This document shows, piece after piece, positions 1-61,019 of a DNA stretch of 64,000 nucleotides. Made by a program: the position numbers and the translations under genes. Every line of letters starts with the position of its first letter. The stretch's first letter is position 1. Under the pieces are notes generated by a model. That model saw only the letters and a list, made by a program, of their open reading frames with translations. It was not told the origin of the DNA and made no database searches. Source of the DNA: Candidatus Latescibacterota bacterium (GTDB lineage: Bacteria > Krumholzibacteriota > Krumholzibacteriia > WVZY01); the NCBI GenBank assembly GCA_963791045.1, contig CAWBQK010000013.1, forward strand, positions 64,001 to 128,000. The letters run 5' to 3'.

Positions 1-3000
1 TATTGGGCCTCGACGAGCGACTTGCCCCGCTTGATCCGGTTGAGCCCCGTCTTAACAGCGACATATTCGTCGTCGACCTGGCTTGAGAACGACCGGTACC
101 CCTCGATATCAAACATCGCGGCGAGATCCCAGGTGATCGGGAACGTTTGTTTCATTCCCATGATTGTTCCCATTCGCTTGTCGTTCGCCGTCCGGTTCAT
201 CGCGTACTTCGTATACAGCTTCGAATTCTGACCCGTCTGCGCCTCGATGCCGGTGAGCAGCTGGTGGGTCGCAGGCCGGTTGTGCGCCGACAAGTACTCG
301 TGCGTCGCCACGACCCGGTATCTCTGGAGGAAGCGGTACGACAAAGCCGAAGTCAAACGGTCGGGATACTCATCGACAATATCCGCGCCCTGGTTCCGCT
401 CCCAATGCGTCCGAAGTTCCGCGCTGCGGCCGGCGCGGACGCCGGCGTCAAGCATGGTGAGAAAACTGCTGCTCTCGATACTTTCCTTGTCCTGCGTCGC
501 CGCCCTGAGGCCCGCGCCAAACATCAGGGTCTTCCCTTCGTACTTTCCAAGCACGTCCACATTGCCAAGACGGTCGCCGCTATTGTCATTCCGGTGTTTG
601 AAACCGTGCGAGTCGATGGACAGGTCGTTGCTTATTCTCAAGTGCGAGTCAAACCCCGCCTTTTCGCTGTAAAGCTCGCGCGAAGCTCCGGCAAACGACG
701 GGTTGAGGAAATTGCCGTCGACCTTGCGGAGATAAACCGAGTGCTCACCCATGAGTTTTTTCGTGCCCGCCATCACGCGAAACGCGTTGCCTTCGCCGGC
801 GATGTCGTCCTCGCTTCGAGCAAACTCGCCCCCCAGATCGAGCCAGCCTATCGAGTATCCGCCATCGAAGCCGTAGAGCGAATAATCCGAAAGATGCCCG
901 TCCTTGGCGATCGCGGTCACGCCGAGCTTGAAACGGCCGCTCTGTGCCAGTGCGCCTCGGATCCCGTAGAGATAGTCTCCCTCTTCCGACGATTCCGCCT
1001 CGTAGATGGCGACGATCCTTACCGGGTTCAATTCGCGCGTGAATGCGGGAATCGGCTCTTTGAAAAGAATCGCGCCGTTGAAATAGTTGACGGTGAAGTC
1101 CCGATGTTCAGTGAGGGGCCTGATCTCTAGAATTCTCTCGGACTGGTAGCGGTCGCGCACCTGGAGCATGAGGTTTACAGAGTTTTCCACGACGGGCGAT
1201 TTCGACAGGAAGTAGAACCCGCTGGTGCCGTCACCCTGGATTTCATCCTGGACGGTAAAGAAATCCGTTTTGGTCACGAACGCTTCGACACCGGCGTTCC
1301 CAGAAACGATGGCGCCGTTGAGGCCGGTGGCTGATTTCTTGTAGGTGAGAAATTCTCCCTCGGTAAACGGCGACCGGAAGTCTCCGTATCGCAAGAAGGA
1401 CTGCCCCTTCTCGAGGGCGATGTAATTGCCGCCCTGCGCGGGCGCCTCGTAGTGAAGCTCGGACGCGTCGCCGTACGCCGTGTACTGACGCTCGGGGTTG
1501 AAAGTCTGAAGGAGCGGATCGTCGTAGCGCTTATCGGTGTCGATACGCGCGGTCAAATTGATTCCCGCGTACGACGTCCCCTGGATAAAGAAACGCGACT
1601 CGCCTTTGAATCGAACACCCTCGTAGTAATCTTCGAGACCCAACGGATCGCCGCTCCCCGATGAGCTGAAAGCGCCGAGACGCCCCTCGATGATTCCCGA
1701 CATAAACATCGACCGGTGTGCCGGAACAAAAGCGACAACACATGTCGCCCTGTAACCGTGCGACTCGACGACAATATTCCGGCGCCCCGTTGTCAGGCTC
1801 GGCCGGATGTGCACGAGGAACTGTCCGTTCTCGCTCGAAATCTGCAGGCCGCGCTGATCCGGATCTTCGTCGGAGTTAGTAACAAGCGAATCGCCTTCGA
1901 TCACGGTGGCTATGAGACCGTTTATCGTCGGGAGACCGAGTTCGTCGCGGAGTTCGACCAGAATCGTCTCGCGTGACTGCCCGTCCGCGGGAAGGATGAC
2001 ACGATCGGGCACTATCGCGATATCCACGGGTTTGCCCGCGAGCGCGACCGACACGCTGTCGACAATCGTTTCGGCTCCATTGACGGGGGTCGCTTCGAGT
2101 CGAGGCGTGTTCCAACCGTTCTTGATGCGCACGGCGTAATAAGTGATCTCTTCGAATCGTTCGTCGAGATGGATTTCTTTTTTACCGATCCGGTCCGCGG
2201 GAACGAGTTCGTCACCGCTGAACAATTCGTACTTGCTGCCCAGCGGGACCCGGGCCGTGACTTCGATCTGGTCGCGCTTAATCACAACCGATCGGTCGGG
2301 CGGGTCAAGGAGTCCGAGCGCCTTTACCTTGTCCTGGCCGCCGCGTTCGTCCGGCGGACTCTGTTCAGCATCGCCGGCAACTCCGTTCGCTCCGCCAACG
2401 GAATAACTCGCCGTGCTGTCCCCGGGGGCAAAACCGACACCGGCGGCGCGCAAACGCATGGCGAGATCTTTGTCCTCTTCCCACGAAACCAGCGTGTAAT
2501 ACTCCGTCTCTTTGCCGCCCCATCCGTGGGCGAATGGCTCGAGGACGACCGTGGAATCGAGCCACGATGACGAAGCGTCGGGAACGTCCGGCCACGCGGG
2601 CTCGGTAATCGACCGGTTTGCTTCACGCCACGGGACTTTGCGGCTCGTGCTTGTCTCCACGCTTCCCAAATCCGCCCGCGTACTCGAACCACCATACGAA
2701 CTCGATCATCCGCCCCCGTGTCCCCGACCGTCGAGTTGAATCCGACAACGGAACGAATCTCGCGCACCCGATGCGTGTCGGACGCCGCCGCGGTAAACGA
2801 CACCTTGCACTCGATTCCGCGCGATCGGGCAAATCCACCGACGACATATCGGCCATCGACTTCGGCGATCCTCCCCGCCGCACGTGACGCGCGTCTTTGC
2901 GTCATCGAACACATCCGGGATTTCGAGCGCGAGATCAATCTCGACCGGGATTATCGCGTCGGAGGAGATTCCCCAAATCACAAACACGTGGAACGAATCG

Positions 3001-5282
3001 GCGACGGTTGTCACGTTACTCATGTCGGCTTCGACACGGTCGATTTCCGCATGGTCCTCGACACCGGTTCCCGGCGGAACAAAACTGACCTCGACACGAC
3101 GGTTCTCTGCGCGGCCTTCGCGCGTCGTGTTCGTCGCCACCGGCGTAGTGTCGCCGTGGCCTCGTGCGACGATCCGCTCTTGGGGAATCCCTTTGGCGGA
3201 CAGATACCGCTTAACCGCGCCGGCACGCGCCTCGGAGAGTTCCTGGTTCGAAGCAAATTCCGCGTTGTGGATCGGAATGCTGTCGGTGTGACCTTCCAGA
3301 TAGACGATCCAACCAGGATTCTTCTCGAGAAATTCGACAATCGGGTTGAGATAGTGCAGCGTCCCGGTTTTCAGATACGATTTGCCGATTTCGAACAGCG
3401 AACTTGGAATTGACGGCATCCGGTAAAGGGCCTGTTGTTGTTTCCGGATGCTCACCATTTCCTGGCAGGATATCTGACGCGACACCCGCGGCCTTTCGCG
3501 GGCCCGTTCGGGCATCGGGAATGACACCACCGCGTGGCCGCTGGGGATCATGTGGACCAACCGTTCGGTGCCGAACACTGCGTTGGTTTTTGTGGATATG
3601 GCCTCGATGTCGACGATGTCGGGCGCGAGCGTGCTTTCATCGATCCGGATTACACGAAAACCGGAAAACACCCACGGGACCGAGAAGCGCCCCGTCGAGT
3701 CGGTCAACGCGTACTCCCCGCTCTCGAGAAATACGCCGACCCTCGGGAGTCCCCTCTCTCCGTGATCACGCTTGCCGTTTTTGTTTGCGTCGACAAACAC
3801 ATCGCCAAGGAGGAAACCCTCGTCACCAAACATATCGTTTGCAATCTTGAGCGCGTTGACCACGGGCCCCGCGTAAAGATTGCGCGCGAGCGCCGTGCCG
3901 ACAGCGTTTCCGGTGATCTTCGTCCAGCCGTTCTTGACGCGACTGTTTGCGACAAACTTGATCACCGCCTGCCGGCGTTCCCCGGGAGCGAGTGATCCAA
4001 CCTGCCATGCGAGGGTCTTTCCGTCGAGCTCAAAATCCGGACTCGAGAGAAACTCGAGTGTCGGCTGAACCGTTTCGTCCACAACGACATTGTCGGCGCG
4101 GACGCTGTCGCTCCGGTTGGCAACCGCGACAACCAGGGTGACGATGTCACCGAAGGCCGCCGTGTTTTCTTTGAAAGTTTGTTCGAGACTGAGAACCGCC
4201 GACGGGTTGAACGGTTCGGCAAGAACAATCCGGTCGATTGTTTCGTTCGTCCGCGTCGTGTCGAGGAGCGAACGCGCTCGCAGACGAATCGATAACGAGT
4301 CCTGCCCGACGTGATAGAACGACTCATCTTCGGTGGTGACGTGAACTTGAAGCGTCCGTCTTTCACCGCTTTCCAGCTGACCGAGAAGCACCGCGCCCGA
4401 ACTGGCAGGAACCGTTCGAAGCCCGTTGCCGGCGCTGTCCCGCACGGTTACCTGAACCCCGGGCGGCCAACCGGTCGAATCGGCGGGCTCGATCCGAATT
4501 ATGTCCGGATCGCGGCCATCGTTAAGAATTTCGTTTTCAAAAACAAGTGTCTGCGTCGACACTCCAACGCTGCGGCGCGTGACGTCATCGGGACTACCCT
4601 CTCCGCCCGGCAACGCCTTCGCGTTCTCGAGCGGTCCGACGTGAAGCGGTTGGACTGGATCCGCCTGTGTGAGAATGTGAACAACGCTCGATGCCCGGCG
4701 CTCGAGCGTGTCGACACCCGTGGCCGCCGAAATATCGACATAACTATCCCCACCACCCTGCCCCGAAGTGAGAACGTACATCGTTCCCAGGTCCGTCGAC
4801 TCTCCGGGCCCGAGGTTGAGGAAGGATCGGTCTTCCTCTCCGGGATCGAAAGCGGAATTCCCGTTCGAATCGTGATAGAAAACGACATCACTGATTCCAA
4901 TCGTCGACGCGGACAAGATCGCGTGATCGACCGAGATCGAATCGGCGACGTTCCCCAGGTTTCGCACCACGAAACCGCACTGAACGGTATCCGCCTCGAA
5001 ACCGAACAGCGAATACGCGGGACTCGCTACCGTGCCGGCCGGCGTAAGCGAAATCTGGAAGAAAGGACCCACTGGTGTGGTCGCCGGATTGGACCGAACG
5101 GCGTGTCGGAAGCCGTTCTGAGTGTACTCGGCGCTGGACTGGGAAATGATTTCATAACCAAGAGGCGGGACGGCGGCCTGCACGTTTTGCCAAACAAAAA
5201 ACACCCCTACGACGACCCAACACCATAACAGGCGCTTTAACAATGGGTTATAGGGATGAATTCTCACTTGATGATCTCTCAA
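1..5282 (-). CDS. Giant secreted outer-membrane protein: N-terminal Ig/DUF11 repeats, SdrD-B-like domain, OmpA-like peptidoglycan-binding domain, Ig domain and long beta-rich barrel-like C-terminus. 3' end lies beyond the window. Interrupted by an apparent compensating frameshift pair (~2870 and ~2710).
   Basis: 858-aa ORF 5282-2706 has a signal peptide (..QNVQA|AVPP), DUF11 (GDIVTLVVAVAN..LAWQVGSLAPGE), FVDANKNGKRDHGE and OmpA motifs (EGHTD, NQELSEARA, NRRVE). In the segments I translated, the same frame resumes after TGA 2706 and reaches base 1 (NPERQYTAYGDASELHYEAP, ERILEIRPLTEHRDFTVNYFNGAILFKEPIP). The ORF track lists no stop-bounded ORF in that frame. Segment ~2870-2710 reads protein-like in another frame. 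Start codon uncertain. Confidence 0.8.
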
Positions 5283-5308
5283 GGATACAATCCGCCATAT
5301 ACGGGGCT

Positions 5309-5340
5309 GGCGGATGAATGGCTGAAGCCACTCATCCGCC
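5309..5340 (-). other. 14-bp intergenic RNA hairpin (mRNA stabiliser or attenuator candidate, no U-tract)
   Basis: Minus strand GGCGGAUGAGUGGC-UUCA-GCCAUUCAUCCGCC. The single mismatch is a G-U pair only on the minus (coding) strand. Confidence 0.6.
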
Positions 5341-5376
5341 TGCCTTGCTCAAATATTGTCCGTCTTGTCGGACGAA

Positions 5377-8079
5377 CTACTCGGCAATGATCCGAACTAT
5401 AAAACTCACACCGGTTGCTGACGCTCCACCGGGTTCAAGAACTCCGGCGAGAACAAAACGCACATGCGTAACGTTCGCGTCGAAGTTGACCGGTGCACCG
5501 CCACCACCGCTGACCGGCGTGTACGTCCACGACGTACCGCCGTCATTCGAATACTGCGGCGTTACGCCGGTAATCGAAGCCGGTGGTGTGCCAGGGTCAA
5601 CGGAACCGACACGGAACTGCGTGAACGCCGGAACCGCGTCTATGACCGCAAGGGTCTGAAGCGAATCCGTTCCGAGGTTCTGATAGTCCGTGGTGTATGT
5701 AAGCTCCGAGCCCGGTGTTTGCGGGCCCGCGGGAGCCACTGCCTTGGTGATCTGGAGATCACCGGCTGTTATCAACGTGATGTCGATCGCGTCGTCGCTC
5801 ACGAGCGTGACGTTGCCTGTAGCGGTCAACGTGCCCGTCTCAACCGTTCCAACGGTCGCCGTACCGGGAACCATGACCTGAGCGATAACCGTAACGCTGG
5901 CGCCGGGGTTGAGCGTTACATCGGCCAGAGGGTTGTTGAGCGTATCGTAGAACAGATACGTCCATCCCTGCGACGAGACGTACGACAGCGCGAACGTATC
6001 GGCCACGTTACCGGTATTGGTTACCGTGTGCGTGTAGCGGATCGTCCCGCCGGGTGTCGTGCTCCCGTTCTGATCGGGAGAGAAATCAACCGCCGCAAAG
6101 TTGTTTATCGTAACTGTGTTGGCGATAGTGTCCAGAATGGTTCCGTTGGCAACCGAGGTCGCTGTAAACGACACGGGGTTGATACCCGGAGCCGCACCCG
6201 CAGGAACATCCACACGGGCGACGATATTTACCTCGGCTCCACCCGCGATCGGTCCCACCGATACCAGTGTCGTGGTTTCGCCGGGATCGAGCACACCGTT
6301 GCCGTTGGGATCGTCGTAGAACGTGACGTTCCATCCCGCGGGCACCGCATAGGTGAGCGTGTAGGAATCGCTTCCCCCACCCGTATTAACAACATCGAGC
6401 GGGAAATCAACCGACGTCGCCGGGTCGGCGGGCAGATCCAACGGATTGTTGTCCGTGCCCGGACCGGCAAGGTAGTTACCGATGTCCACGCTGACCGGCG
6501 TCACGTTGAGGACGCGATCAGTCGTAAGGTTGAACTCGGTTGGATCGATCGTCGACTGGGCACGGATAACCGCGTCAAACGGTCCGCCGGCAGCCTGGCT
6601 GCCCGGGATTACCAGTCGAACGATAATGTCGACACTGTCGCCCGGCGCAACGGGGCCCACATCGGGGAGTCCGTCAAAACCGGTATCGGCGAGCGGAGTC
6701 ACGCCATCTGACTGGAGCAAAAGAACGCCCCAGGTGGCGGGAAGTGTCGACGCCGGATCGGTGAGAATATTGATCTGATCGGCGGCATTGCCGTCGTTTC
6801 TTACGGTATTGACGAAGTCCACGGTCGTGCCCGCATCGGCGTTGGCGAGAGTCTGGAGATCGTCGTTGTACAGGGGAGGCGTACCGGCACCGGCGTCACC
6901 GGCAGGACCGATTACGATGTCCGCGAGACCGCCGATGGTCACCAGCGCGTTATTCGAAACGATCGTTGTCGGATCCGGTGTCACGGCGGTGTTGTCGATA
7001 TAGGTCACGGCCGCGGTGTTACCCAGTGAACCGGCGCCCATGCCGATCGGAACGGTCGCCTGATACACAAAGTTGTAACCCTGACCCGGAATGATCGCGC
7101 CGTTGGTCACATAACCGACGGCAAGGTCGCCCGGCCCTGCTACGAGGCCCCAGTTCCATGTTTCGGGATCTCCAGCGGTCGACTCGCCGGCGGGAAGATA
7201 AAGAACCGTTCCACCCGCTGGCGTACCAAACGGCACACCGGAAATTGCGAGAGGATTTCCCGTCGAAGGATCGGTCGGAATAATATCCCAGAGCAACACA
7301 CCGGTAAGACCAACGGAACCAACGGTTACGCCGTTCGCGTTGTTGTTACCCGTGTTTGAACCGGAAAGCGTGTAGGTTACCTGGTTGCCTTCGAATACGA
7401 TCGCGGGCGCGGCGGCGAGATTGGCCGTCATTACCGCGTCGTTCACAACGTCGGTCCTGTGATAATTGCGTGTGTCGATCTGTGCCGCGTCTCCAACAGA
7501 GACACCGGTCACACCGACGTAAGCAAGTTCACCCGAAACGGCGGCCGCGGGCACTGTGTAGGCGACGATAACACTGATTGTCTGCCCGGCGGTGAGAATC
7601 CCCGTATTGCCCGAAATGCCCCCGGCGCTCAGAACGGGTTCACCAAGATCCACCATGCCGTTCGAGTTGAGATCGTGATAAATCGTGACATCGACGTTGT
7701 TGAGCAACATTGTTGAATTCGCAACGTCAACATTGGGAGACAACGTAAAGTCATCGTCGTCATTACCCGTGTTGGTCAGATCGTATCTATAATATACGGT
7801 CATGCCGGGCAGTGCATTCTGAGCCATCGCCGGAGTCAGGGGAGGCGTTTCACCCGAATCATCGGGGAGAATCGACACACCAAACACCGGAAGAACGATG
7901 GTGATGACTTCATTTGATGTCGCGGAATAATTGTTCCCACCCATGTCCTGGTAGGTCGCAGATGACCGGTTCCGGATCTGCGTACCGGCAGGCGTTGCCT
8001 GCGCAAAGACAGTTGTTGCCGTGACCGCGACGATCAACAGCAACATCACGGGAAGGGTGATGTAGACTCGTCTACTCAT
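5377..8079 (-). CDS. Secreted 900-aa DUF11/Ig-like repeat protein, putative fibre (pilin-like) subunit
   Basis: Signal peptide (..TTVFA|QATP), RBS AAGGA. Repeated 'V.I.P..PG.T..Y..NTGN..D.F.L' Ig modules, Ca-loop motifs DLNSNGMVD and DPNGNGVLD, C-terminal DUF11 (LQITK..GSELTY..IDAVP..YSNDGG..VTHVRF). Thr/Gly/Val-rich. Confidence 0.85.
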   Translation of the reverse strand: MSRRVYITLPVMLLLIVAVTATTVFAQATPAGTQIRNRSSATYQDMGGNNYSATSNEVITIVLPVFGVSILPDDSGETPPLTPAMAQNALPGMTVYYRYDLTNTGNDDDDFTLSPNVDVANSTMLLNNVDVTIYHDLNSNGMVDLGEPVLSAGGISGNTGILTAGQTISVIVAYTVPAAAVSGELAYVGVTGVSVGDAAQIDTRNYHRTDVVNDAVMTANLAAAPAIVFEGNQVTYTLSGSNTGNNNANGVTVGSVGLTGVLLWDIIPTDPSTGNPLAISGVPFGTPAGGTVLYLPAGESTAGDPETWNWGLVAGPGDLAVGYVTNGAIIPGQGYNFVYQATVPIGMGAGSLGNTAAVTYIDNTAVTPDPTTIVSNNALVTIGGLADIVIGPAGDAGAGTPPLYNDDLQTLANADAGTTVDFVNTVRNDGNAADQINILTDPASTLPATWGVLLLQSDGVTPLADTGFDGLPDVGPVAPGDSVDIIVRLVIPGSQAAGGPFDAVIRAQSTIDPTEFNLTTDRVLNVTPVSVDIGNYLAGPGTDNNPLDLPADPATSVDFPLDVVNTGGGSDSYTLTYAVPAGWNVTFYDDPNGNGVLDPGETTTLVSVGPIAGGAEVNIVARVDVPAGAAPGINPVSFTATSVANGTILDTIANTVTINNFAAVDFSPDQNGSTTPGGTIRYTHTVTNTGNVADTFALSYVSSQGWTYLFYDTLNNPLADVTLNPGASVTVIAQVMVPGTATVGTVETGTLTATGNVTLVSDDAIDITLITAGDLQITKAVAPAGPQTPGSELTYTTDYQNLGTDSLQTLAVIDAVPAFTQFRVGSVDPGTPPASITGVTPQYSNDGGTSWTYTPVSGGGGAPVNFDANVTHVRFVLAGVLEPGGASATGVSFIVRIIAE

Positions 8080-8089
8080 AGTCCTTACC

Positions 8090-8581
8090 TCACTTGATTA
8101 CCGTTCTGTACGTTACAGTGATGCCTTGTTTTGGCTGGACGGGCTCCGAGAGAGCCCAACGGAGATGCGTCACCATGTCCGGTGTTGCCTCCACCAATTC
8201 TTCCTCGCCGTTCTCGTTCGTCTGTTTGACGAGAATCGGCCAGGCCTGGTACGTTTTTCCTCCATCGATGCTGTACTCCACGTCGCCCGTTTTGAGCTCG
8301 GTGGCTGACGGATGGACGAATTCGGTACCCAACGGGATTCCGTCCGTTATGAAAATATTCTGTATGGGCTGGTCGCCGGTGTTGGTGTAGGTCAACCGAT
8401 ATTCAATTGTATCGTTTGGCCTCGCGTTATCAGCGGGAAGAAAATCTTCCACTCCCTGGTCGGTAACCACCACCCGAAAAGCCTCGAGACTGCCCGCCAG
8501 ATCCCCCCCGGCGGCAAATGCCATCGATGCGGTCAATCCGAGAACAAGCAGAAACACCGCAAAGAAGCGCTTCTCTATCAT
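8090..8581 (-). CDS. Small secreted single-DUF11-domain protein (163 aa)
   Basis: GGAGG RBS before ATG 8581. Signal peptide MIEKRFFAVFLLVLGLTASMAFA. Motifs PNDTIEYRLTYTNTG..ITDGIP..EYSIDGGKTY..VTHLRW, homologous to the C-terminal domain of the 900-aa neighbour. Confidence 0.85.
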   Translation of the reverse strand: MIEKRFFAVFLLVLGLTASMAFAAGGDLAGSLEAFRVVVTDQGVEDFLPADNARPNDTIEYRLTYTNTGDQPIQNIFITDGIPLGTEFVHPSATELKTGDVEYSIDGGKTYQAWPILVKQTNENGEEELVEATPDMVTHLRWALSEPVQPKQGITVTYRTVIK

Positions 8582-8695
8582 AAAGAGCCTCCTTAAAAAC
8601 TCCGGTCCGTGGATAATTTGAAACGTCGCGGCGAGGATCGATGACGTACCGAGGGGTAAGATTTCTTCCCCGCCTGTCCGGTCAGGGAGACAGAT

Positions 8696-8711
8696 AGCAA
8701 GGAGTGAACCA
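8696..8711 (-). promoter_or_regulatory. Candidate sigma54 (-24/-12) promoter of the DUF11 operon
   Basis: Minus strand TGGTTCACTCCTTGCT = TGG-N10-GC with TTGCT, ~115 bp upstream of ATG 8581. A GAFTGA activator is encoded next door. Confidence 0.6.
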
Positions 8712-8721
8712 CCTATGAGAA

Positions 8722-8741
8722 GTGTCAAGGAACGATGACAC
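8722..8741. promoter_or_regulatory. Palindromic operator candidate GTGTCA-N8-TGACAC
   Basis: Perfect 6-bp inverted repeat just upstream of the sigma54 element. Confidence 0.4.
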
Positions 8742-8840
8742 CTCATGAGAAATCCCGCGTCGCTGTGGGGCGACCGACGGCGGTTTCTCCCCAATCACGG
8801 AACGACGGGGTAATTCAAGACGCAACACGAACGCGCAACC

Positions 8841-8857: not shown

Positions 8858-8928
8858 TTTCTGGCGAAGACACCCGGAACAGGCCGAAAAGTGTTGAATA
8901 TTCTCCACCCAATGGCAATTATTTGGTC

Positions 8929-9993
8929 ATGGACTTACCATCGCGCGCATCAAGGTACAGGCTGGCAATAGTCCTGGTGGTGTCACTGGCGACCGTGGCC
9001 TTCCATTACGGCCTCATCGTCAAGCCATCGGCGGGAGATGACGGATTTTTTCATGCGATACACGGGCGTCTCTGTTATATCCCGATCATCCTCGGCGCGA
9101 TCTGGTTTGGGGTTCGCGGCGGCCTCGGAATCGCTCTTTTTATAACGGCGCTCACAATCCCATACGCCCGGTACGGCCCGCACGCCCAACACGGCGCGGC
9201 GATCGGCGAATACACCGAGATGATTTTCTATGTCGCGATCGGCCTCACGGCGGGGTTTCTTATCGAACTTCAAAGACGAGAACGTAAAAGGCGGGAGGAG
9301 ATGGCCGACGAACTCGCCCGCCAGGAACACCTCTCATCGCTCGGGCAAATGGCCGCCGGTCTCGCCCATGAAATCAAAAACCCGCTCGGTTCGATAAAAG
9401 GATCCGCCGAAGTCATTGGCGACGATTATCCCGAAGGCACGCGCAAACATGAAATCGTCGAAGTGCTTTCGAAGGAAACCGACAGGTTGAATCGCGTCGT
9501 GGAAGATTTCCTCAAATTCGCGCGGCCGCGGCCGATAAACAAAGAGATGCGCGGGTTGAACTTTCTGCTCGAGGAAGTCGTGTTGCAGATTGGAGTGGAT
9601 GCAAACGCCCGCAACATCACAATCAAAAAAGACATCGACGTCGCACTTCCTGTGGCGCGGGTCGATCCCGAGAAAATGCGCCAGGTGTTTTTGAATATGC
9701 TGCTCAACGCCGTGAACGCGATGCCCGACGGGGGCACTATCCGTGTCGAAACCAAAGTGGACATCCGTGACGGCAAGAACGTCTTTCGCATCACATTCAT
9801 GGACGAGGGCGTCGGAATACCGCCCGAGGATGTCAAAAAAATATTCGATCCGTTTTTCACGCGGACGGACGGCGGGACGGGTCTTGGACTCTCGATTTCA
9901 CACTCCATCGTCCAGGAACACGGCGGCCATATCGAGGTCGAACCCAACCACCCGCGGGGGACGTCGATTTCCGTTATCCTGCCCTTTAAATAA
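8929..9993 (+). CDS. Membrane-bound sensor histidine kinase (NtrB/ZraS/PilS-like)
   Basis: About 4 N-terminal TM helices, H-box LAHEIKNPL, N-box QVFLNMLLNA, G boxes DEGVGI, FDPFF, GTGLGL. Confidence 0.92.
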   Translation: MDLPSRASRYRLAIVLVVSLATVAFHYGLIVKPSAGDDGFFHAIHGRLCYIPIILGAIWFGVRGGLGIALFITALTIPYARYGPHAQHGAAIGEYTEMIFYVAIGLTAGFLIELQRRERKRREEMADELARQEHLSSLGQMAAGLAHEIKNPLGSIKGSAEVIGDDYPEGTRKHEIVEVLSKETDRLNRVVEDFLKFARPRPINKEMRGLNFLLEEVVLQIGVDANARNITIKKDIDVALPVARVDPEKMRQVFLNMLLNAVNAMPDGGTIRVETKVDIRDGKNVFRITFMDEGVGIPPEDVKKIFDPFFTRTDGGTGLGLSISHSIVQEHGGHIEVEPNHPRGTSISVILPFK

Positions 9994-10004: not shown

Positions 10005-11354
10005 ATGCCCAGGCCAACCATACTCATAGTCGATGATGACGCGAGCATCCGCAAAGTCCTCGGATTTATCCTCGAGGAGGCGGGCTATGCGATTCGCACG
10101 GAATCGTCGGGCGCGGCGGCAATCGCGGCCATTGAGAGCAAACGGCCCGACCTCGTAATGACCGATATCAAGATGCCCGGGATGGACGGGATTACGCTTC
10201 TCGGCGAAATTAAGAAAATCGACGACGGCATCCCCGTCATCGTGCTCACCGCGTTTGGCTCGGTGGAGACGGCCGTCGACGCCATGAAACTCGGGGCAAT
10301 CGATTATCTCACGAAACCAATCAGCCGGGATGAGCTTACACTCACCGTCGAGAAAACGCTCCGGATACGACAACTCGAAAAAGAGAACGTGTCGTTAAAA
10401 GAATCTCTCGCCGACAAGTTCGATGTGGCGAACATCATCGGACACTCCCCCGCCATGCAAAGCGTATTTGAAATCGTCCGGAAGGTGGCGGCCACGGACG
10501 CGTCGGTCCTGATAACCGGCGAAAGTGGAACCGGGAAGGAACTCATTGCAAGGGCAATTCACTTCAACTCCACCCGCAAGGATGCGCGGCTTGTCACGGT
10601 AAACTGCGCGGCGATTCCCGAGGACCTTCTTGAAAGTGAGCTTTTTGGGCATGTAAAGGGCGCGTTCACCGGAGCCATCAGGAAGAAGGACGGCAGGTTT
10701 CACCTGGCGCACAACGGGACCATTTTTCTCGACGAGATCGGATCGCTTCCCCGACCCCTCCAGGCAAAACTCCTTCGAGCGCTTCAGGAACAAGAAATCC
10801 AAAGGGTCGGCGAAGAAGAACCCACAACGGTCGACGTTCGTGTGATTTCAGCCACCAACCGTCCCCTGCCCGAGCTGATTCGCGACGGGGAATTTCGCGA
10901 CGATCTTTTTTACCGATTGAATGTCGTACCGGTCACCGTGCCACCGCTGCGTCAGCGCCGATCGGACATACCGCTTCTCGTCGATCACTTTAAGGGGGAC
11001 GGAGGAAAGGTAACGTTCACCGCCTCGGCGCTCGCGGCGCTCGAGGAGTACGAATGGCCGGGAAACGTGCGCGAGCTGGAAAATTTTTGTGAACGCATCG
11101 TGTTGATGTCAGGCTCGGGCACGATCGACGCCGCACCAGTACGGGAGCAGATCGAATTGATGAAAGCGGAACAAGCCCATATCGGATCACCGCAACAGGC
11201 AACGCTTCCCGAGGTGGAACGCCGCGCCGTGGTCGAAGCGCTTATCGACTGCAACTGGAACCAGTCGAAAGCCGCCCGCCGCCTCGGCATCCCACGGCAC
11301 GTTCTTCTCTATCGCATGAAGAAGTTCAACATCCACCGCGACCATTCCGACTAA
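10005..11354 (+). CDS. Sigma54-dependent NtrC-family response regulator
   Basis: Receiver (ILIVDDD, DLVMTD), AAA+ GESGTGKE, GAFTGA, WPGNVRELEN, C-terminal Fis-type HTH (NQSKAARRLGI). Confidence 0.96.
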   Translation: MPRPTILIVDDDASIRKVLGFILEEAGYAIRTESSGAAAIAAIESKRPDLVMTDIKMPGMDGITLLGEIKKIDDGIPVIVLTAFGSVETAVDAMKLGAIDYLTKPISRDELTLTVEKTLRIRQLEKENVSLKESLADKFDVANIIGHSPAMQSVFEIVRKVAATDASVLITGESGTGKELIARAIHFNSTRKDARLVTVNCAAIPEDLLESELFGHVKGAFTGAIRKKDGRFHLAHNGTIFLDEIGSLPRPLQAKLLRALQEQEIQRVGEEEPTTVDVRVISATNRPLPELIRDGEFRDDLFYRLNVVPVTVPPLRQRRSDIPLLVDHFKGDGGKVTFTASALAALEEYEWPGNVRELENFCERIVLMSGSGTIDAAPVREQIELMKAEQAHIGSPQQATLPEVERRAVVEALIDCNWNQSKAARRLGIPRHVLLYRMKKFNIHRDHSD

Positions 11355-24139: not shown

Positions 24140-24241
24140 TGAAACCACCTTCGTTGAACTTCTTACACCTTAGAATACGTAGCCATTCAATCTGAAGTTT
24201 CAAAAGAAACGATGGCTTATTTACCGACGGGAGAAGATCCG

Positions 24242-26371
24242 ATGCACGCGAATCCAGCAAAACACCTAAAATGCTTTATTGCAGTGGTTTGTCTGGCCGC
24301 CATGCTTATACCGGCGAGCCCCGGCGACACTCTGGCAAAAATCATCGACCTCGAGACCGAGGCCCCGAATTTCCGGCTGACCGGGGTCAACGGGGATGAT
24401 TTCGCCGGTCAAACCGTTCTTCTTGGTGACTTCAATGGAGATAACCGGGATGACATGATAATCGGGGCGAGGGGTGTGGATTTTGATGGGCGGAGTTCGT
24501 GCGGCGCTATCTATATTGTACTCTCGAGCGACACGCTGACCTCTCCCATTGATTTCGCTGCCGATCGCCCGGATCTCAAACGAATTTTCGGCCCCACGGC
24601 CAACGCACAGGCCGGATCGAATGTCGCTTGCGGCGATGTCAATAATGACGGTCTCTCTGACATTGTCTGCGGAATCCCGACGGCGAACCCGAACGGGAAA
24701 TTCTCGGCCGGCGAGGTATACATTATATATGGAAGCGACACCCCGGCCGACACGCTCGATCTCGGCGGACCTGCGGCGGGATTCACGGTGATCCAGGGCG
24801 AAAACGTTTTCGACAAGCTCGGGGAATCCGTCGCCGTCGGTGACATCAACGATGATAATTTTGGAGATATTCTCGCGGGAGCGCCTTTCGCCACCGCCGC
24901 GGGAAGGCAGTTCACCGGTGTTCTGTTCGTGATGCACGGGGCCGCGTCGCTCGCCCCGGTCATCGATCTGACCGGGTTGACGACGGGTGTCACACGAGTT
25001 TTTGGAACCCACGATAACGACACCTTTGGGACGAGTTGTTTCAGCGCGGACGCGACAAACGACGGCGTGGATGACATTCTCGCGGGAGCCCCGCAAGCCA
25101 CGGTTCTTGGGCGGTCATTCGCCGGCGCGGGATATCTTATCCCCGGATCGACCACGCTTCCCGACACGATCGATACGCTCGCCGATACCTCGACCGGTAT
25201 CGTACGATTCCTGGGCGCGGACGCCGACGTTCTTGCCGGTTCCGGGTTCGCCGTCGCGGATCTGGACGGCGATCTGAACAATGAACTGCTCGTATCGTCT
25301 CCCGCGTATCCGACAAGCGGCAGGATCGGGGCCGGGGCTGTCTACTCTTTTAACGGAGCAACCAGCCTGCCCGATACCGTCGATCTGGCCTCACCACCGG
25401 CCGGGACAGTCCGAATCGACGGACCCACGCGGGGACTGAAAATCGGCTTCCATCTGGCGACGGGCGACTTGAATTTCGACGGTATCGATGACCTCGTAAT
25501 CGGTTCACCCGAGGCCTCGCCCCCGGACATACCCAACCCAAGAAATCAGGCCGGGATAGTCTATATTGTCTTCGGGCGCGAAGTATTCCCCGCCGTGGTG
25601 GATATCGGCGTCGAACAGACAGGTATTACAACGATTTATGGAGCCGCCCCTCTGAACGCGACTGGGGTGTCGGTGTCGGTGGGGCGTATTGACGCCGACG
25701 GATTCGACGACCTTCTCATCGGGGCCAACACAACCGATCAGGATGCCGCCTTTTCGGCGGGCGAAGCGATCGTCCTCCTCGGAAATCCCGGAATAACGCC
25801 GACACAGGTCACATTCCACAATGCGTGGGTCGACGCGGGGAGCGTTTGGCTCGAATGGCATACAAGGGATGATATCGACCCCGATTCGCACATTGTGCTG
25901 CGCTCGAAGGGCGGCGCGGATGGCCAACTCGTGCGTCTTCCGCTCGAGGGCGCCCTGACGCGAACCGGGCCCGGGCAGTTCGTTTTCGAAGACAAAGAGG
26001 CAAGTTTGGCGGGTTCGTATTCGTATACGGTAGCGACGGCCGGGGCGGATCCACAAACCTTCTTTACCGCAACCGTCGACGTCCCAACCCCGGACGGGGC
26101 GTTTCTCCGCGCCAACGCTCCCAATCCTTTCCGACACGAGACATCATTCTTGTTCGAAATCCCAAGGGCCGGGCGCGTGGCGATTCGTATATACGACGTC
26201 AGCGGCGCTCTCATCGCCACACTTGGGCCCAGGAACTACGCGGCGGGCAGCGCGACGGCAACCTGGAATGGCCGGACTCGAAACGGAGGACTCGCCCCCA
26301 CGGGGATATATTTTGCCCGTATGGAGTACGAGGGAGGGGCCTTCCAGCGGAAAATATTGCTCCTTCGCTAA
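24242..26371 (+). CDS. Secreted FG-GAP (integrin-alpha-like) 7-repeat propeller protein with C-terminal FlgD-Ig/T9SS-like sorting domain
   Basis: Signal peptide. Seven GDxNxDGxxDxxxGA-type repeats, each followed by an AGxVYxxxG-like motif. C-terminus NAPNPF..IRIYDVSG..WNG..GIYF..KILLLR. Confidence 0.9.
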   Translation: MHANPAKHLKCFIAVVCLAAMLIPASPGDTLAKIIDLETEAPNFRLTGVNGDDFAGQTVLLGDFNGDNRDDMIIGARGVDFDGRSSCGAIYIVLSSDTLTSPIDFAADRPDLKRIFGPTANAQAGSNVACGDVNNDGLSDIVCGIPTANPNGKFSAGEVYIIYGSDTPADTLDLGGPAAGFTVIQGENVFDKLGESVAVGDINDDNFGDILAGAPFATAAGRQFTGVLFVMHGAASLAPVIDLTGLTTGVTRVFGTHDNDTFGTSCFSADATNDGVDDILAGAPQATVLGRSFAGAGYLIPGSTTLPDTIDTLADTSTGIVRFLGADADVLAGSGFAVADLDGDLNNELLVSSPAYPTSGRIGAGAVYSFNGATSLPDTVDLASPPAGTVRIDGPTRGLKIGFHLATGDLNFDGIDDLVIGSPEASPPDIPNPRNQAGIVYIVFGREVFPAVVDIGVEQTGITTIYGAAPLNATGVSVSVGRIDADGFDDLLIGANTTDQDAAFSAGEAIVLLGNPGITPTQVTFHNAWVDAGSVWLEWHTRDDIDPDSHIVLRSKGGADGQLVRLPLEGALTRTGPGQFVFEDKEASLAGSYSYTVATAGADPQTFFTATVDVPTPDGAFLRANAPNPFRHETSFLFEIPRAGRVAIRIYDVSGALIATLGPRNYAAGSATATWNGRTRNGGLAPTGIYFARMEYEGGAFQRKILLLR

Positions 26372-35975: not shown

Positions 35976-38123
35976 ATGGCCAAAAAAGCCAAGAAGAAAA
36001 CAGCGCAAACGGACGCGGTCCGAAAAGCGACCACGCGCGAAGTTGATTTCGACAGACTGATGTCACGCTCCTCGATAGGAAAAAGCGAGATCAAGTACGT
36101 CGCCGCCGTGTTCGTGATCGCGCTCGCCGTGCGTCTTGTCTATTTCTTTTTGAACAAGGCAAACAACCCGCTCTTTTATCACCCGATACTCGATGCGTTG
36201 TTTCACCACGAGTGGGCGGGGGAAATACTCGCCGGCAATTTCTGGGGAGACGAGGTTTTTTTCCGGGCACCCTTCTACCCCTATGCGCTTGCCTTCTTCT
36301 ATAAGCTAAGCGGCTCCAGCATCGCCTTCGCCACTTTTGTTCAACACATTACAGGATCGTTCAGCGCCGCACTCCTCTACGCGCTCTCGCGCCAGTACTT
36401 CTCCGTCCGGGTGTCACTGCTCGCCGCGGTTCTGGCGGCGCTGTATTGGCCTCTGATTTATTTCGAAGGCGATCTATTGATCGTCACCTTTGTTGTCTTC
36501 TTTGACATCTCATTACTGCTCTGCCTTGCCGTCGCGATCCGCAAACAATCGACGCCTTTGTATGTCGCCGCGGGGTTGATTCTCGGGCTATCCGCCATCG
36601 CGCGGCCAAGCATTTTGATCTTCGTGCCGGTCATCCCCATTGTTTTTCATGTGTCCTCGATGATTCAACAGCGCGGTCAATCACGCACATGGCAGAAACA
36701 AACGGTTCTGCTCCTGTCCGGCGCTATGGTCATTATTCTTCCGGTCATCATCCGAAACTATGTCGTCGGACGTGATTTTGTGCCCATCGCGTCACAGGGC
36801 GGGGTCAACTTTTATATCGGCAACAACCCACAATCGAATGGGAGTCTCGCGATGGTGCCCGGCGCGCGGGCCGATATGTACGGCACCTATCACGGCGCCA
36901 TCGAGCTTGCCGAGCGGGACAGGGGCCGTCGTCTCAAACCCTCGGAAGTCTCCAGTTACTACACGGGGAAAGCGCTCGGTTTTTTCGCGGAAGCGCCGGG
37001 CGACGCTATGGCCCTTACATCCAAGAAGCTGTATATGTTCTGGGCCGGAGTTGAAAGATCTAACAACAAGTATATCCAGTTCTTCTGGGAACGATACGGT
37101 CTCGGGAAGATACCCCTTCCCGGCTTCTGGCTGATCGGACCCTTTGCGCTCCTCGGAGGCGTTCTGCTATTTCGGAGACGGCGCGAAATGTCGCTCCTCT
37201 ATCTTTTTGTGTTGAGCTATATGGTTGGCGTCGTGGCGTTCTTTGTAAACGCGAGATTCCGGCTCCCCGTCACTCCCGTTCTTATCTTGTTCGCATCCTT
37301 CGCCATTTTTTATCTGGTGGAGTGCGTCCGCGCAAGGAGCGAGAGCTTCCTTCGAGCGCTGCTTGTTCTCGCGGTGTGTGTTTTTATTGTCGACTATGAT
37401 TACATCGCGTTTCGCGGTGTTAGGGCCATCGATGAGGCAATTTCGCATTACGAACTGGCCAACGCTTTCCTCAAGATGGATAACAAGGACGGGGCGCTGC
37501 ATCATTTCGAGCAGGCCAGGGAGATACAGGAGAAATATCCGACGCGTGCGTATCTTCAAATCTCAGGAACCGTCGATTTCAATCTTGGCTCGATCTATTT
37601 TGAAAACGGACTCTATTCTCGGGCCGTTCAGGCGTTGGAACGTGTCCCCGACACCGACCCGCGTGTCTATCAGGCAAAGACCCTCCTTGCCGACTGTTAT
37701 GTCAAAGGTGGCCGCTATGCCGACGCGATAGACGTATACGTCCGCATCCTCCAGGCGGACCCGAACCATGCGCGAAGCCTCTTTGGTCTCGGCATCGCCT
37801 ACCGGATGACCGGCGATCTCGACCGCTCGCAGCAGGCCCTGGAAGAGGTACTGCGAAAGCACAAACCACCCGACGGTAGTGTAAACCTCGAACTCGCTCG
37901 AACGCTCCAGGCCCGCGGCGACACCGAGGGAGCCATCCGCAACTACCAGATTGCGTCGGCCAGCAATCTTCAACGGCGCGACGCCTACCTCGAACTCGCC
38001 CGGCTCCACAAGACACAGGGAGACAGGGAGAAAGCGATCGAATACTACGAAAGGCTTCGTACGGCGTATCCGAACGACAGATCCATCCAGATGGAAATCA
38101 ACGCGCTCCGTTCGAACAATTAG
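35976..38123 (+). CDS. GT-C (GT39/ArnT-like) glycosyltransferase with C-terminal TPR array
   Basis: PILDALFH, FFRAPFYPY, ARP, RNY, GGVNFYIGNNP, ARFRLP. About 7 TPRs. Confidence 0.85.
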   Translation: MAKKAKKKTAQTDAVRKATTREVDFDRLMSRSSIGKSEIKYVAAVFVIALAVRLVYFFLNKANNPLFYHPILDALFHHEWAGEILAGNFWGDEVFFRAPFYPYALAFFYKLSGSSIAFATFVQHITGSFSAALLYALSRQYFSVRVSLLAAVLAALYWPLIYFEGDLLIVTFVVFFDISLLLCLAVAIRKQSTPLYVAAGLILGLSAIARPSILIFVPVIPIVFHVSSMIQQRGQSRTWQKQTVLLLSGAMVIILPVIIRNYVVGRDFVPIASQGGVNFYIGNNPQSNGSLAMVPGARADMYGTYHGAIELAERDRGRRLKPSEVSSYYTGKALGFFAEAPGDAMALTSKKLYMFWAGVERSNNKYIQFFWERYGLGKIPLPGFWLIGPFALLGGVLLFRRRREMSLLYLFVLSYMVGVVAFFVNARFRLPVTPVLILFASFAIFYLVECVRARSESFLRALLVLAVCVFIVDYDYIAFRGVRAIDEAISHYELANAFLKMDNKDGALHHFEQAREIQEKYPTRAYLQISGTVDFNLGSIYFENGLYSRAVQALERVPDTDPRVYQAKTLLADCYVKGGRYADAIDVYVRILQADPNHARSLFGLGIAYRMTGDLDRSQQALEEVLRKHKPPDGSVNLELARTLQARGDTEGAIRNYQIASASNLQRRDAYLELARLHKTQGDREKAIEYYERLRTAYPNDRSIQMEINALRSNN

Positions 38124-38131
38124 CAAAAGAC

Positions 38132-40271
38132 ATGGCGAAACACTCCAAAAAGAAGCCCGTAAAAGTACCCGACCAGGCCCCATTGACCGCGCATTTCGCC
38201 GCAACCGAAACGTGGAACAAATTGGACTGGCGGAACGCGGCCATTGTTCTTGCGGTTGCCGTCGCCATACGCCTCGTTTTTTTCTTTCTCAACAGGCATA
38301 ACAACCCGCTCTTCTACTACCCCATCATGGACGGCAAGTACCATCTCGAGTGGGCACAGGAGATTCTTTCCGGCAACTTCTGGGGCAACGGCGTATTCTT
38401 CCGGGCACCGCTGTACCCTTACTTTCTCGCGTTTCTCTACAAGATCGGCGGGACACATATTGGCTTCGTCATTTTTTGCCAGCATTTGATCGGCGCCGCA
38501 AGTGCGGGGCTTGTTTATCTCGTAGCCCGCTTGTTCTTCCGCCCCGGAATTGCGCTACTCGCCGGGCTGTTCGCCGCGCTTTACTGGCCGTTTCTGTATT
38601 TTGAAGCCGACCTGCTCATAGTGACGTTGATCGTATTCTTCGACCTTCTCAGTCTGTATTTTCTTATTCTCGCGCTTAAGACGTCGCGAGCCGGTTATTT
38701 TATCGCCGCCGGGCTCATCCTCGGATTGTCGGCGGTCGCGCGCCCAAATATTCTCGTGTTGATCCCCGCTTTGCCGTTTGTGTTCTGGTTGTGGCCGGAC
38801 GGTCGAAACAAAGACACGGCCACACGCCGGAAAGTATGCTTCCGCCAAACCGTTTTTGTTTGTGCCGCCGCGGCGCTGATGATCTTGCCGGTGCTCGTCA
38901 GGAACTGGGTCGTCGGCCGCGACATTGTTCCGATCGCGTCGCAGGGCGGTGTGAACTTCTATATTGGCAACAACCCCGACGCCGATGGGCGCACGGCGAT
39001 AGTCCCGGGCACAAGATGGGACTGGTGGGGTGGCTACGAAGATGCGATCCGGATGGCGGAAAAAGAAGCGGGCCGCAAACTCAAACCGTCCGAGGTATCC
39101 AATCACTACTTTCGAAAAGGCGCCGGGTTCGTATTTACACAGCCGGATCGTTCCATCCCGCTCCTCGGCAAAAAGCTGCACCTGTTCTGGGCCGCGGGGG
39201 AACGATCGAACAACAAATATATCTATTTCTTCTGGCACCAGGGGGGAATGGGAAAGGTCCCGCTGCCCGGGTTCTGGCTCATCGCACCCCTGGGACTCCT
39301 CGGAGGGGTTCTCTTGTGGCCGCGCCGTCGTGAACTCTCTCTCTTCTACCTGTTCACCGTGACTTACATGGCTGGGGTGATCGCGTTCTTTGTCAACGCG
39401 AGGTTCAGACTGCCTATAGTTCCCATACTCATCATGTTTGCCGCCTATGCGTGTTTCCATCTGTGGCATGTCGCCCGCCACAGAAGATCCGAACTCTGGA
39501 AACCGCTGGTTGTTTTTGCGTTGTGCGTTTTCGCCATCGATTTTGACCTCGTCGGTTTCGGTGAAAACAAAATCAATGAGGACGCACTCTCGCACTACAC
39601 TCTTGGAAACGCCTATCTCAACCGCGGTGACACCAAGAACGCCATCGCCGAATATGAAGAAGCGCTCGACCGATATAAGCAATACGGAAGAAAAGGTTTT
39701 CTCGTTGTCGCTCGCAATGTCGAGTACAACCTGGGGCGACTGTACTGGTCGGACAAGCGCTGTGAAGAGGCAATACCGCACCTCGAACGAGTGGGAGGAA
39801 ACGACCAGTTCGCCGTCGTTGCGCTCGAGATGCTCGCCGATTGTTACGAAAGCGAAAAACGTTACAACAATGCAATCGACGCCTATGAATTGATCCTGAG
39901 AGCCGTACCCAACAACGACAAGGCTCGTTTCGGTCTGGCGAGAACTCACCGTTTGATGGGAAATCTGGAAGAGGCGGAAACGCTATTCCGATCGATCGTG
40001 TCCGACGGAACGGGGCAAAATGCGGAAGCCTACATGGAACTGGCCGCAACACTCGAAGCTCTTGAGAAATGGGATGAAGCGGCGGCCGCCTATGAAAACG
40101 CCGCGAGAAGCCCGGCATATCGCGTCCGCGCCCTTATAGGCGCGGCGAGGATGTACGCTCGAGGGGGGAGACGGGGAAAAGGCCTCCGGCTGTCTCGACC
40201 GCGCAAAGAGTTTCGCCCCCGACGATCCTGCCGTTGACAAGGCAATCGACGCGCTCCGCGCGGACGGCTGA
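38132..40271 (+). CDS. Tandem paralogue GT-C glycosyltransferase with TPR array, apparent frameshift in G-run near 40165
   Basis: Same motifs as the upstream gene (PIMDGKYH, GGVNFYIGNNP, ARFRLP). Shifted frame gives TPR-like end GEKASGCLDRAKSFAPDDPAVDKAIDALRADG* at 40271. Confidence 0.82.
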
Positions 40272-43714: not shown

Positions 43715-43782
43715 AAAAACAAGGTGGTTTACTCTCCCGGTCTTGGTTTGCCGGGAAAATGCGGTATCGAGGAGGACGACAA

Positions 43783-53991: not shown

Positions 53992-54007
53992 TGGCACTTC
54001 GGTTGCT
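53992..54007 (+). promoter_or_regulatory. Sigma54 promoter
   Basis: TGGCACTTCGGTTGCT, essentially consensus, ~50 bp upstream of ATG 54056. Confidence 0.85.
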
Positions 54008-60758: not shown

Positions 60759-61019
60759 ATCAAAACCTTCCTTTTTGGTGAATAACCATACAATTATGCC
60801 CAAACGAGCCCCGTATGTCAATACATGTAACAGACTTCGACGAACGGGACTAGCGGTCGTCGGTCCGGCTTTTCGCGCGTCGGCCGCATTGATTCCCAGT
60901 CGACGGACTCACGTGTACGATTTTGTCTTGAGCAATTCGGAAGAGTGGTATATACCGAAAGCGGTTCGGGCAACATCACACGTCGATCATCCGTATGACT
61001 GGGGATGAAAGGAGCCTCC

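Follow-up and report, generated by a model that had tools for sequence, protein, structure and literature searches.

A candidate surface fibre operon with split CLIPPER domains and a very large beta-barrel in a Candidatus Latescibacterota genome

At one end of a 64,000-nucleotide stretch of a Candidatus Latescibacterota genome (GenBank assembly GCA_963791045.1, contig CAWBQK010000013.1, positions 64,001 to 128,000; hereafter the window), four long open reading frames (ORFs) lie on the minus strand within positions 1-8794 (8090-8794, 5377-8079, 2706-5282, and 3-2669). We read them as three genes of an operon that may build a surface fibre: a small secreted protein, a 900-aa protein here called the subunit, and a giant protein divided over the last two ORFs (Table 1). 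Each of the first three ORFs starts with an ordinary signal peptide. The start of the small protein was taken to be the ATG at 8581 and not the ORF start at 8794, and the sequence AAGGAGG lies 6 nt 5' of this ATG. In a Pfam scan (four operon proteins at E up to 0.1, the 43 other window ORFs at E up to 1e-5), the DUF11 family (PF01345, cut-off 24.6 bits), since renamed CLIPPER, scored above cut-off three times, with 25.1 bits in the small protein, 25.4 bits in the 900-aa protein, and 39.8 bits in the first ORF of the giant. The NCBIfam model TIGR01451 (cut-off 24) matched the small protein with 47.5 bits and gave a second match of 35.9 bits. A preliminary description of the window, made from the sequence alone, had proposed that three co-oriented secreted genes share complementary halves of a DUF11 domain in clusters usually annotated as generic proteins. 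All three genes are indeed on the minus strand, the halves are conserved in orthologues, and the database labels of such clusters are limited to hypothetical or OmpA proteins.

The 900-aa protein closes on an incomplete domain. Its DUF11 match takes in residues 774-870 and positions 1-84 of the 114-position profile, leaving 30 residues to the end of the protein. The 900-aa orthologues listed all stop straight after the strand equivalent to the conserved strand of the small protein, and other proteins of the cluster likewise end at that strand in each lineage inspected. Identity to the window protein is 56-68% among the 24 orthologues aligned. In complete internal domains this strand is followed by a hairpin motif, for example at residues 352-383 in the 900-aa protein and 456-480 in the giant. 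About 38 strongly conserved residues at the mature N-terminus of the 900-aa protein have the form of the two strands missing from its C-terminal domain. A profile of this donor hairpin retrieved 66 proteins at an independent E-value (iE) below 0.01 in the fetched loci, among them giants and subunits from all phyla sampled, and every one of the 66 matches begins within the first 84 residues of its ORF. The layout first proposed for the 900-aa protein, with two strands at the N-terminus and a truncated DUF11 domain at the C-terminus, is thus conserved in its orthologues. A survey of homologues for the same pattern found it kept, with N-terminal hairpins in 66/66 proteins and common ends in 40/40 small proteins. 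With the full-length 900-aa protein as phmmer query, the PDB gave 0 matches at E up to 1.

To model the two halves together, as the preliminary description had suggested, a complex was predicted from two segments of the 900-aa protein: residues 27-215, with the hairpin and the first domain of that chain, and residues 661-900, which span the last two domains. The 24-row orthologue alignment served for both segments. The interaction score ipSAE between hairpin and acceptor was 0.80, 0.79, and 0.81 in three runs, and the best of three controls reached 0.00. At least 97% of the contacts agreed between runs, and the predicted local distance difference test (pLDDT) of the partner was at least 93. 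The docking mark applied is reached by 58/80 solved complexes and by 2/110 mismatched pairs, counts that are approximate here since a custom alignment was used. The interface comprises residues 27-29, 33, 35-46, 48-58, 60-63, 65, and 106 on the donor side and residues 772-781, 785-789, 793-799, 805-820, 881, and 897-900 on the acceptor side, with strand 40-44 alongside 807-812 and strand 55-63 alongside 777-793 and 897. The modelled hairpin departs from its own first domain, which is present in the same chain, and completes the truncated domain of the partner. In this prediction an incomplete Ig fold is filled out by a neighbour's N-terminal extension, in the form of a hairpin and not of a single strand. 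The model supports binding of the hairpin by the acceptor in trans, short of proving it.

A further feature of the two halves concerns the residues of an isopeptide bond. The CLIPPER domain structure 9IFR has an intramolecular Lys715-Asn806 bond with Asp748 as catalyst, which ties the first strand to the penultimate one (PMC12617251). In alignments, the beginning of the 9IFR chain matches proteins from the split-domain system at their first-strand Lys and conserved-motif Asp. Two complete domains of the system hold a full triad: that of the L050 barrel protein (Lys98/Asp132/Asn195), where the Pfam match ends 5 residues past the Asn as in 9IFR, and the internal domain of the window giant, which has Lys371, Asp402, and Asn459 in cis. 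The spacing in both agrees with 9IFR. In the subunit the triad is divided, with Lys779 and Asp814 in the C-terminal acceptor and Asn37 in the N-terminal hairpin, on its first strand. When 18 donor hairpins were searched as a profile against the PDB, chance matches alone resulted, none of them to 9IFR, so the reactive Asn was mapped by Pfam coordinates and residue spacing. Lys779, Asp814, Asn37, and Asn56 are each invariant in 24/24 subunit orthologues. More widely, the donor Asn occurs in 49/50 rows classed as subunits, the exception being a 5' fragment of a giant gene. On the acceptor side, automatic alignment placed Lys and Asp in 27/30 donor-plus-acceptor proteins, and the remaining 3 are gapped at the Lys column. 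Such alignment of the acceptor first strand is unreliable at that column and inspection by eye was used instead; among 16 listed donor-plus-acceptor and large acceptor-only proteins, it found the first-strand Lys in 13 and an Asp or Glu at the catalytic position in all 16. A triad that is both split and invariant suggests, at the level of sequence, a covalent lock between subunits: with Lys and Asp in the acceptor and Asn in the donor, docking probably ends in a self-catalysed Lys-Asn bond. The split triad is new here; like the control by sigma-54 and the breaks reported below for the giant gene, it was absent from the preliminary description.

The small protein is a free copy of the subunit's last domain, because its profile aligns there over nearly the whole length in the 900-aa orthologues (e.g., iE 6.5e-11, positions 16-159 of 167). 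Forty aligned small-protein orthologues, drawn from Krumholzibacteriota-type, Fidelibacterota, Campylobacterota, and cyanobacterial loci, all terminate in one column, 5 residues past the conserved strand, which bears out the earlier view of the 163-aa protein as a DUF11 domain without its last two strands. An AlphaFold2 (AF2) model has pLDDT above 95 over residues 28-163. Foldseek with this model found no match in the PDB at E ≤1e-3, the weak matches being TTHA1873, RrgB, CBM3, and 9IFR. The last of these is also the best PDB sequence match of the small-protein profile (E 0.033) and of a repeat region from locus L048 (E 0.0011). The Lys and Asp pair is present in just 5 of the 40 orthologues; the window protein has Arg instead of Lys at the first-strand position and keeps the Asp. 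The role of cap, which the preliminary description had offered for this protein, is doubtful, given the absence of the pair in 35/40 orthologues and the more tip-like appearance of larger acceptor-only proteins of about 1330 aa. Most likely the small protein binds donor hairpins in a reversible way, acting as chaperone or primer, and is not a permanent cap.

The second ORF of the giant encodes a barrel that continues beyond the window edge: a database copy of it, P0001, is 1104 aa long, of which 889 aa are inside the window, and comes from a contig of 334,932 bp. The AF2 model of P0001 (pLDDT 78.7, predicted template modelling score (pTM) 0.67) consists of a disordered linker (residues 1-112), two Ig-like domains (116-312), and about 35 long strands (34-36) across residues 319-1094. 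After the third barrel strand sits an insert, residues 375-545 (window positions of about 1030-1545, minus strand), and the most conserved motifs of the barrel family fall within it, including the nine-residue motif that was used for the locus scan. A plug or gate is a possible role for this insert. The barrel is covered by no Pfam or NCBIfam family. Foldseek retrieved only generic large barrels (SlpA, MtrB, LptD, and SprA), all with a template modelling (TM) score of ≤0.22, and no usher among the best 50. The SlpA structures among these best matches are 8ae1, 8agd, and 7zgx. An Atlas search with the barrel led to clusters that are unnamed or loosely auto-named 'TonB-dependent receptor', and a barrel profile found 7,041 representative clusters at E ≤1e-3 and 2,939 at E ≤1e-30 (of 1.84 billion).

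The preliminary description had called for a survey of the three-gene architecture across phyla. An alignment of barrel homologues led to 269 confirmed relatives in one-genome-per-species contigs, and 80 of the 269 loci were examined; synteny was counted in the 53 of them that extend 3.5 kb or more upstream of the barrel ORF. These span five taxon groups, in the lineages Krumholzibacteriota/Latescibacterota, Fidelibacterota, Campylobacterota, and Cyanobacteria. The small protein was found in 51, a donor-bearing non-barrel protein in 48, and both in 47, so that the architecture recurs with the barrel in 47/53 loci. Most exceptions can be accounted for, by a masked stretch in L046, by short flanks in L064 and L073, and in L050 and L076 by hairpins that fall under the profile threshold yet are visible by eye; L049 is the one to which none of these applies. 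The arrangement of the anchor varies. In Krumholzibacteriota-type loci the hairpin, arm, OmpA domain, and barrel form one protein. OmpA lies 3' of the barrel in L042 (3874-9588) and L045 (2142-7889), and in cyanobacterial loci separate genes encode an arm with the hairpin (about 516 aa), a barrel of about 1250 aa, and an OmpA protein (e.g., L061:13381-15618). This shifting position of OmpA, before the barrel, after it, or in a neighbouring protein, fits a modular periplasmic anchor. In Campylobacterota, in L042, L043, and L045, and in cyanobacteria, a donor hairpin begins the barrel protein or the protein just before it. Each locus has one or two donor-plus-acceptor genes, and Sulfurovum proteins of 304-351 aa are examples of short subunits. 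Krumholzibacteriota-type loci also have, after the giant, the acceptor-only protein of about 1330 aa (L001:13053-17090, with equivalents in L031, L022, and L035, among others), which lacks a donor hairpin and whose C-terminus is a truncated CLIPPER domain that has the Lys and the Asp. From their sequences these large acceptor-only proteins look like tip adhesins, and a window equivalent would lie beyond position 1.

These patterns bear on the idea that the locus encodes independent fibrillar adhesins next to an OmpA-fused outer-membrane protein, with each hairpin packing in its own chain and the C-terminal domains stable as they are. The small protein does fold confidently alone in its model (pLDDT >95), and DUF11 proteins are common as adhesin stalks (PMC12617251). 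Independent adhesins would leave unexplained the common end strand of all cluster proteins, the invariable location of the hairpins at mature N-termini, the split triad, and the 47/53 synteny, and the modelled hairpin leaves its own first domain for a partner. We therefore consider this account improbable.

Transcribed divergently from the operon are a histidine kinase gene and a gene for a sigma-54 activator/response regulator, and the same divergent pair adjoins the operon in L001. A site of the form TGG-N8-TTGC precedes the small gene. Scanned for the sigma-54 consensus by itself, the window is at chance level (15 matches against 20 expected); support for the site comes only from its conservation across loci. 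Nineteen Krumholzibacteriota-type loci have it at 104-202 nt upstream of their small gene, and it is found in 2.2% of random 300-nt windows. The kinase and sigma-54 activator are likely to regulate the operon. Elsewhere in the window, the sole zero-mismatch sigma-54 match is a perfect consensus, TGGCAC-N5-TTGCT, at 53992-54007 (+); a small gene of the OmpA family (54064-54720) begins about 57 nt downstream of it.

The control region also bears on a structural role in the envelope, in which the chain would join the barrel to peptidoglycan or to a surface layer, as with Deinococcus SlpA-type barrels. Such a tether would suit the OmpA domain and the presence of SlpA among the best Foldseek matches of the barrel (TM ≤0.22). 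Control by sigma-54 and a two-component system suggests an inducible organelle instead, no SLH domain is present, and related loci encode large, variable, tip-like acceptor-only proteins. We regard a tether or layer as very improbable.

Table 1. Features of the operon and its control region, in window coordinates.
Feature	Position	Strand	Basis or content
Small secreted acceptor-only protein, 163 aa	8090..8581	-	Signal peptide 8513-8581, then one truncated CLIPPER/DUF11 domain
900-aa fibre subunit (candidate)	5377..8079	-	Signal peptide, donor hairpin, about 5 Ig-like domains, truncated acceptor domain
Donor beta-hairpin of subunit, residues 27-65	7885..8001	-	Complex-model interface; Asn37 at 7969-7971
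Truncated C-terminal CLIPPER acceptor of subunit, residues 771-900	5380..5769	-	Lys779 at 5743-5745, Asp814 at 5638-5640
Giant protein, first ORF, 858 aa	2706..5282	-	Signal peptide, donor hairpin, Ig-like arm, OmpA domain
Donor hairpin of giant	5064-5174	-	Donor profile matches residues 40-73 weakly
Complete internal CLIPPER domain of giant	3843-4193	-	Triad Lys371/Asp402/Asn459
OmpA peptidoglycan-binding domain of giant (PF00691), residues 629-728	3099-3398	-	68.3 bits against cut-off 27.2
Broken stretch of giant gene	2552..2868	-	Three-frame translation; tblastn of L001 and L012 giants
Giant protein, second ORF, 889 aa within window	3..2669	-	Linker, two Ig-like domains, very large beta-barrel
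Two Ig-like domains of giant second ORF	1725-2315	-	P0001 model
Beta-barrel of giant	3-1706, continues past window edge	-	AF2 model of P0001
Sigma-54-type promoter-like site TGG-N8-TTGC	8696..8711	-	About 115 nt upstream of small gene; 2 consensus mismatches
Histidine kinase	8923-9993	+	HisKA, HATPase_c (Pfam); divergent from operon
Sigma-54 activator/response regulator	10005-11354	+	Response_reg, Sigma54_activat (241.8 bits), HTH_8

In line with the first description, the Pfam scan of 47 window ORFs found no family of PapC, of PapD, of sortases, or of type IV pili. This includes any PapD-like chaperone with two Ig domains. No sortase family was found, and the subunit C-termini consist of a beta-strand and 1-3 further residues with no membrane anchor. 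Among the operon proteins, the scan also returned no TasA-family match, their fold being CLIPPER, and no autotransporter family. In the Fim and Pap pili, subunits (e.g., FimA and PapA) are handled by the chaperones FimC and PapD and assembled at the ushers FimD and PapC, whose barrel has 24 strands. The proposed system resembles chaperone-usher pili in polarity, with acceptor-only putative tip proteins and presumed growth by donors at the base, and in an outer-membrane barrel encoded in the operon, with no evident cytoplasmic energy source. It differs in a donor made of a two-strand hairpin and not of a single strand, in its CLIPPER/DUF11 fold (CnaA-like), in a barrel of about 34-36 strands whose protein bears a donor hairpin and an OmpA domain of its own, and in multi-domain subunits of 300-900 aa for which a covalent lock is possible. 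Autotransporters thread a passenger through a C-terminal barrel of 12-16 strands, whereas about 35 strands are modelled here. In the engineered SpyTag/SpyCatcher pair, made from a split CnaB domain, a strand with one reactive residue docks and bonds spontaneously; here too a reactive strand would meet the rest of a domain, which has the other reactive residue and the catalyst, in what would be a natural, CnaA-like split used for polymerisation.

Other strand-exchange polymers are comparable in part. Type V pilus subunits are lipoprotein precursors activated by protease cleavage. In contrast, the operon proteins described here have ordinary signal peptides and no related Pfam family, and the cluster encodes its own barrel. 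The type V pili of Bacteroidota (FimA/Mfa1) are likewise polymers formed by strand exchange in a diderm, and they have an anchor subunit dedicated to that role (PMC13655056). For Clostridium perfringens BsaA, of the TasA family, one study (10.1101/2024.11.04.621531) describes an N-terminal donor strand that inserts in the neighbour and a self-catalysed, intermolecular Lys-Asn isopeptide lock, with the triad Asn35/Glu56/Lys74 and mutants that lose oligomers. Donor-strand exchange followed by an intermolecular isopeptide lock is also reported for Sulfolobus threads (PMC9715654). These share polymerisation by docking and then locking, the bond being conjectural in our case; they have another fold, belong to other families, and come from monoderms or archaea, with no outer-membrane barrel or anchor protein. 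The CLIPPER adhesins represented by 9IFR share the domain family and the Lys/Asp/Asn triad, which is intramolecular there and split between two polypeptides here. A literature search found no description of a system combining the barrel with split DUF11 domains. Papers on DUF11 proteins in Litorilinea grappling hooks and on Synechococcus signal peptides are unrelated to such a system, and a paper on DUF1102 (haloarchaeal tafi) is not relevant to DUF11.

We propose that the operon encodes a sigma-54-controlled, self-contained surface fibre of a diderm that would work in the manner of chaperone-usher pili with non-homologous parts, and we put the probability of this at roughly 0.6. Such a fibre would belong to no pilus family described so far, chaperone-usher pili included. 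The proteins would be exported by Sec, after which the hairpin of one subunit would complete the last domain of the previous one, yielding a head-to-tail chain. Docking would be followed by a self-catalysed Lys779-Asn37 lock with Asp814 as catalyst. The giant would hold the base of the fibre by its own donor hairpin and tie it to peptidoglycan through its OmpA domain, and its barrel (about 34-36 strands) would be the exit pore. The small protein would hold donor hairpins reversibly, as chaperone or primer. The evidence is computational throughout and covers the two halves and how they are conserved, their predicted docking, the synteny, and the division of the triad; the proposed fibre is known from genes alone. 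From this evidence we infer how long the polymer is, the covalent bond, export by way of the barrel, and what the small protein does. The self-contained fibre or pilus of the preliminary description thus stands in outline, through its conserved halves, predicted trans docking, and synteny, and is weakened in the role given to the cap.

Several observations weigh against the fibre. An intact CLIPPER fold has already been solved (9IFR), so the docking pass may be partly recall of that fold, and the model is blind both to trans versus cis and to a true partner versus a paralogue, since close cousins pass too. The closest model pairs listed place Ser55, Asn56, and Val58 beside Lys779, and not Asn37; a homology argument points to Asn37 as the partner. 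By automatic alignment, an acid is present in 41/41 large acceptor-only proteins and Lys in 14/41. The donor Asn is replaced by Ser, Gly, or Ala in 15/21 Krumholzibacteriota-type giants and in the window giant, so that the anchor link there would be non-covalent. (A non-covalent giant hairpin was rejected as a general rule, the Asn being kept in Campylobacterota, in L042, L043, and L045, and in cyanobacterial barrel-linked hairpins.) The window giant matches the donor profile with 0.4 bits (iE 0.036 at Z=1), which is weak, and its gene is not one open frame in the window, with two frame changes and a TGA at 2706-2708. The barrel strand count was read from the DSSP string of a model with pTM 0.67. 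OmpA must be periplasmic, and therefore the giant's arm either works in the periplasm or threads its own barrel.

One alternative is a modular adhesin that does not polymerise, in which a small or large acceptor-only protein, one 900-aa stalk, and one barrel anchor are joined as single copies by split-domain complementation. The 900-aa protein by itself is already a long multi-domain stalk, there are just one or two donor-plus-acceptor genes per locus, and the homotypic docking pass could reflect cross-reaction of paralogous hairpins. In such an adhesin, however, the giant hairpin would be the sole partner of the subunit acceptor, which keeps its Lys and Asp in 24/24 orthologues, yet that hairpin lacks the Asn in 15 of the 21 related giants. 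The conserved Lys and Asp are better explained by subunit-subunit links, and we consider the single-copy adhesin unlikely.

The breaks in the giant gene can be placed by comparison with related loci, where one ORF of about 1900-2000 aa encodes the whole giant; in the homologues P0003, P0017, and P0019, the OmpA domain, Ig-like region, and barrel form one uninterrupted chain. In tblastn, the L001 giant aligns to the window with residues 38-803 on 5183-2868 (frame -2), residues 808-855 on 2857-2714 (frame -3), and residues 888-1705 on 2429-3 (frame -2). The reading frame thus changes between 2868 and 2857, and the first frame resumes by about 2552. The third and fourth ORFs of the operon, which make up the giant, share a frame with the TGA between them, and the stretch of about 2870-2680 is plausible as protein only in another frame. 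Both frame changes adjoin runs of G. The window also contains a gene for a family-5 solute-binding protein (SBP_bac_5; 43759-45412, +) that is spread over at least 4 reading frames, in pieces at 43759-44097, 44377-44547, 44024-45007 (its later part), 44866-45117, and 45041-45412. Because this gene is likewise scattered over frames, assembly indels are a likely cause of the breaks in the giant, with a pseudogene as the alternative; together the two genes suggest an indel-rich assembly or several pseudogenes. Of the giant as first described, with N-terminal strands, an OmpA domain, and a barrel, the OmpA domain (68.3 bits) and the modelled barrel stand; the N-terminal strands match the donor profile weakly, and the reading frame is split in the window.

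Three other regions of the window may be recorded. A gene at 24212-26371 (+) encodes a 719-aa FG-GAP repeat protein with a C-terminal FlgD_ig-like domain, which may be a secreted surface protein. At 35976-40237 (+) lie adjacent genes for paralogous membrane proteins (715 and 701 aa), each with a PMT_2 glycosyltransferase-like region and many TPR repeats. A signalling cluster at 58331-63994 encodes an FHA-GAF-HD protein (58331-59875), a PP2C phosphatase (61661-62437, -), and an FHA protein (62693-63994).

A more far-reaching claim, which we hold tentatively and at less than even odds, is that the operon represents a new class of diderm pilus, a natural polymer like SpyTag/SpyCatcher with covalent links made without sortase or chaperone, in which one barrel of about 36 strands, plugged into the base of the fibre, provides both export and peptidoglycan anchoring. 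Pili are classified by the machinery that assembles them, and diderms have few known classes; if the claim is true, it would add a class that has nothing but the donor-strand principle in common with chaperone-usher pili, together with a very large barrel family described by no curated library. It would also be the first diderm case of self-catalysed covalent polymerisation via a naturally split isopeptide domain, a chemistry so far engineered or found in monoderms and archaea, and could supply new protein-ligation parts. The family reaches cultured cyanobacteria, among them Nodosilinea nodulosa PCC 7104 (L061), Calothrix sp. PCC 7103 (L080) and PCC 7716 (L071), and Scytonema hofmanni UTEX 2349 (L072), and the proposal is therefore directly testable. 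If correct, it would give a function to thousands of genes annotated as hypothetical, OmpA, or DUF11 in Krumholzibacteriota, Latescibacterota, Fidelibacterota, Campylobacterota, and Cyanobacteria.

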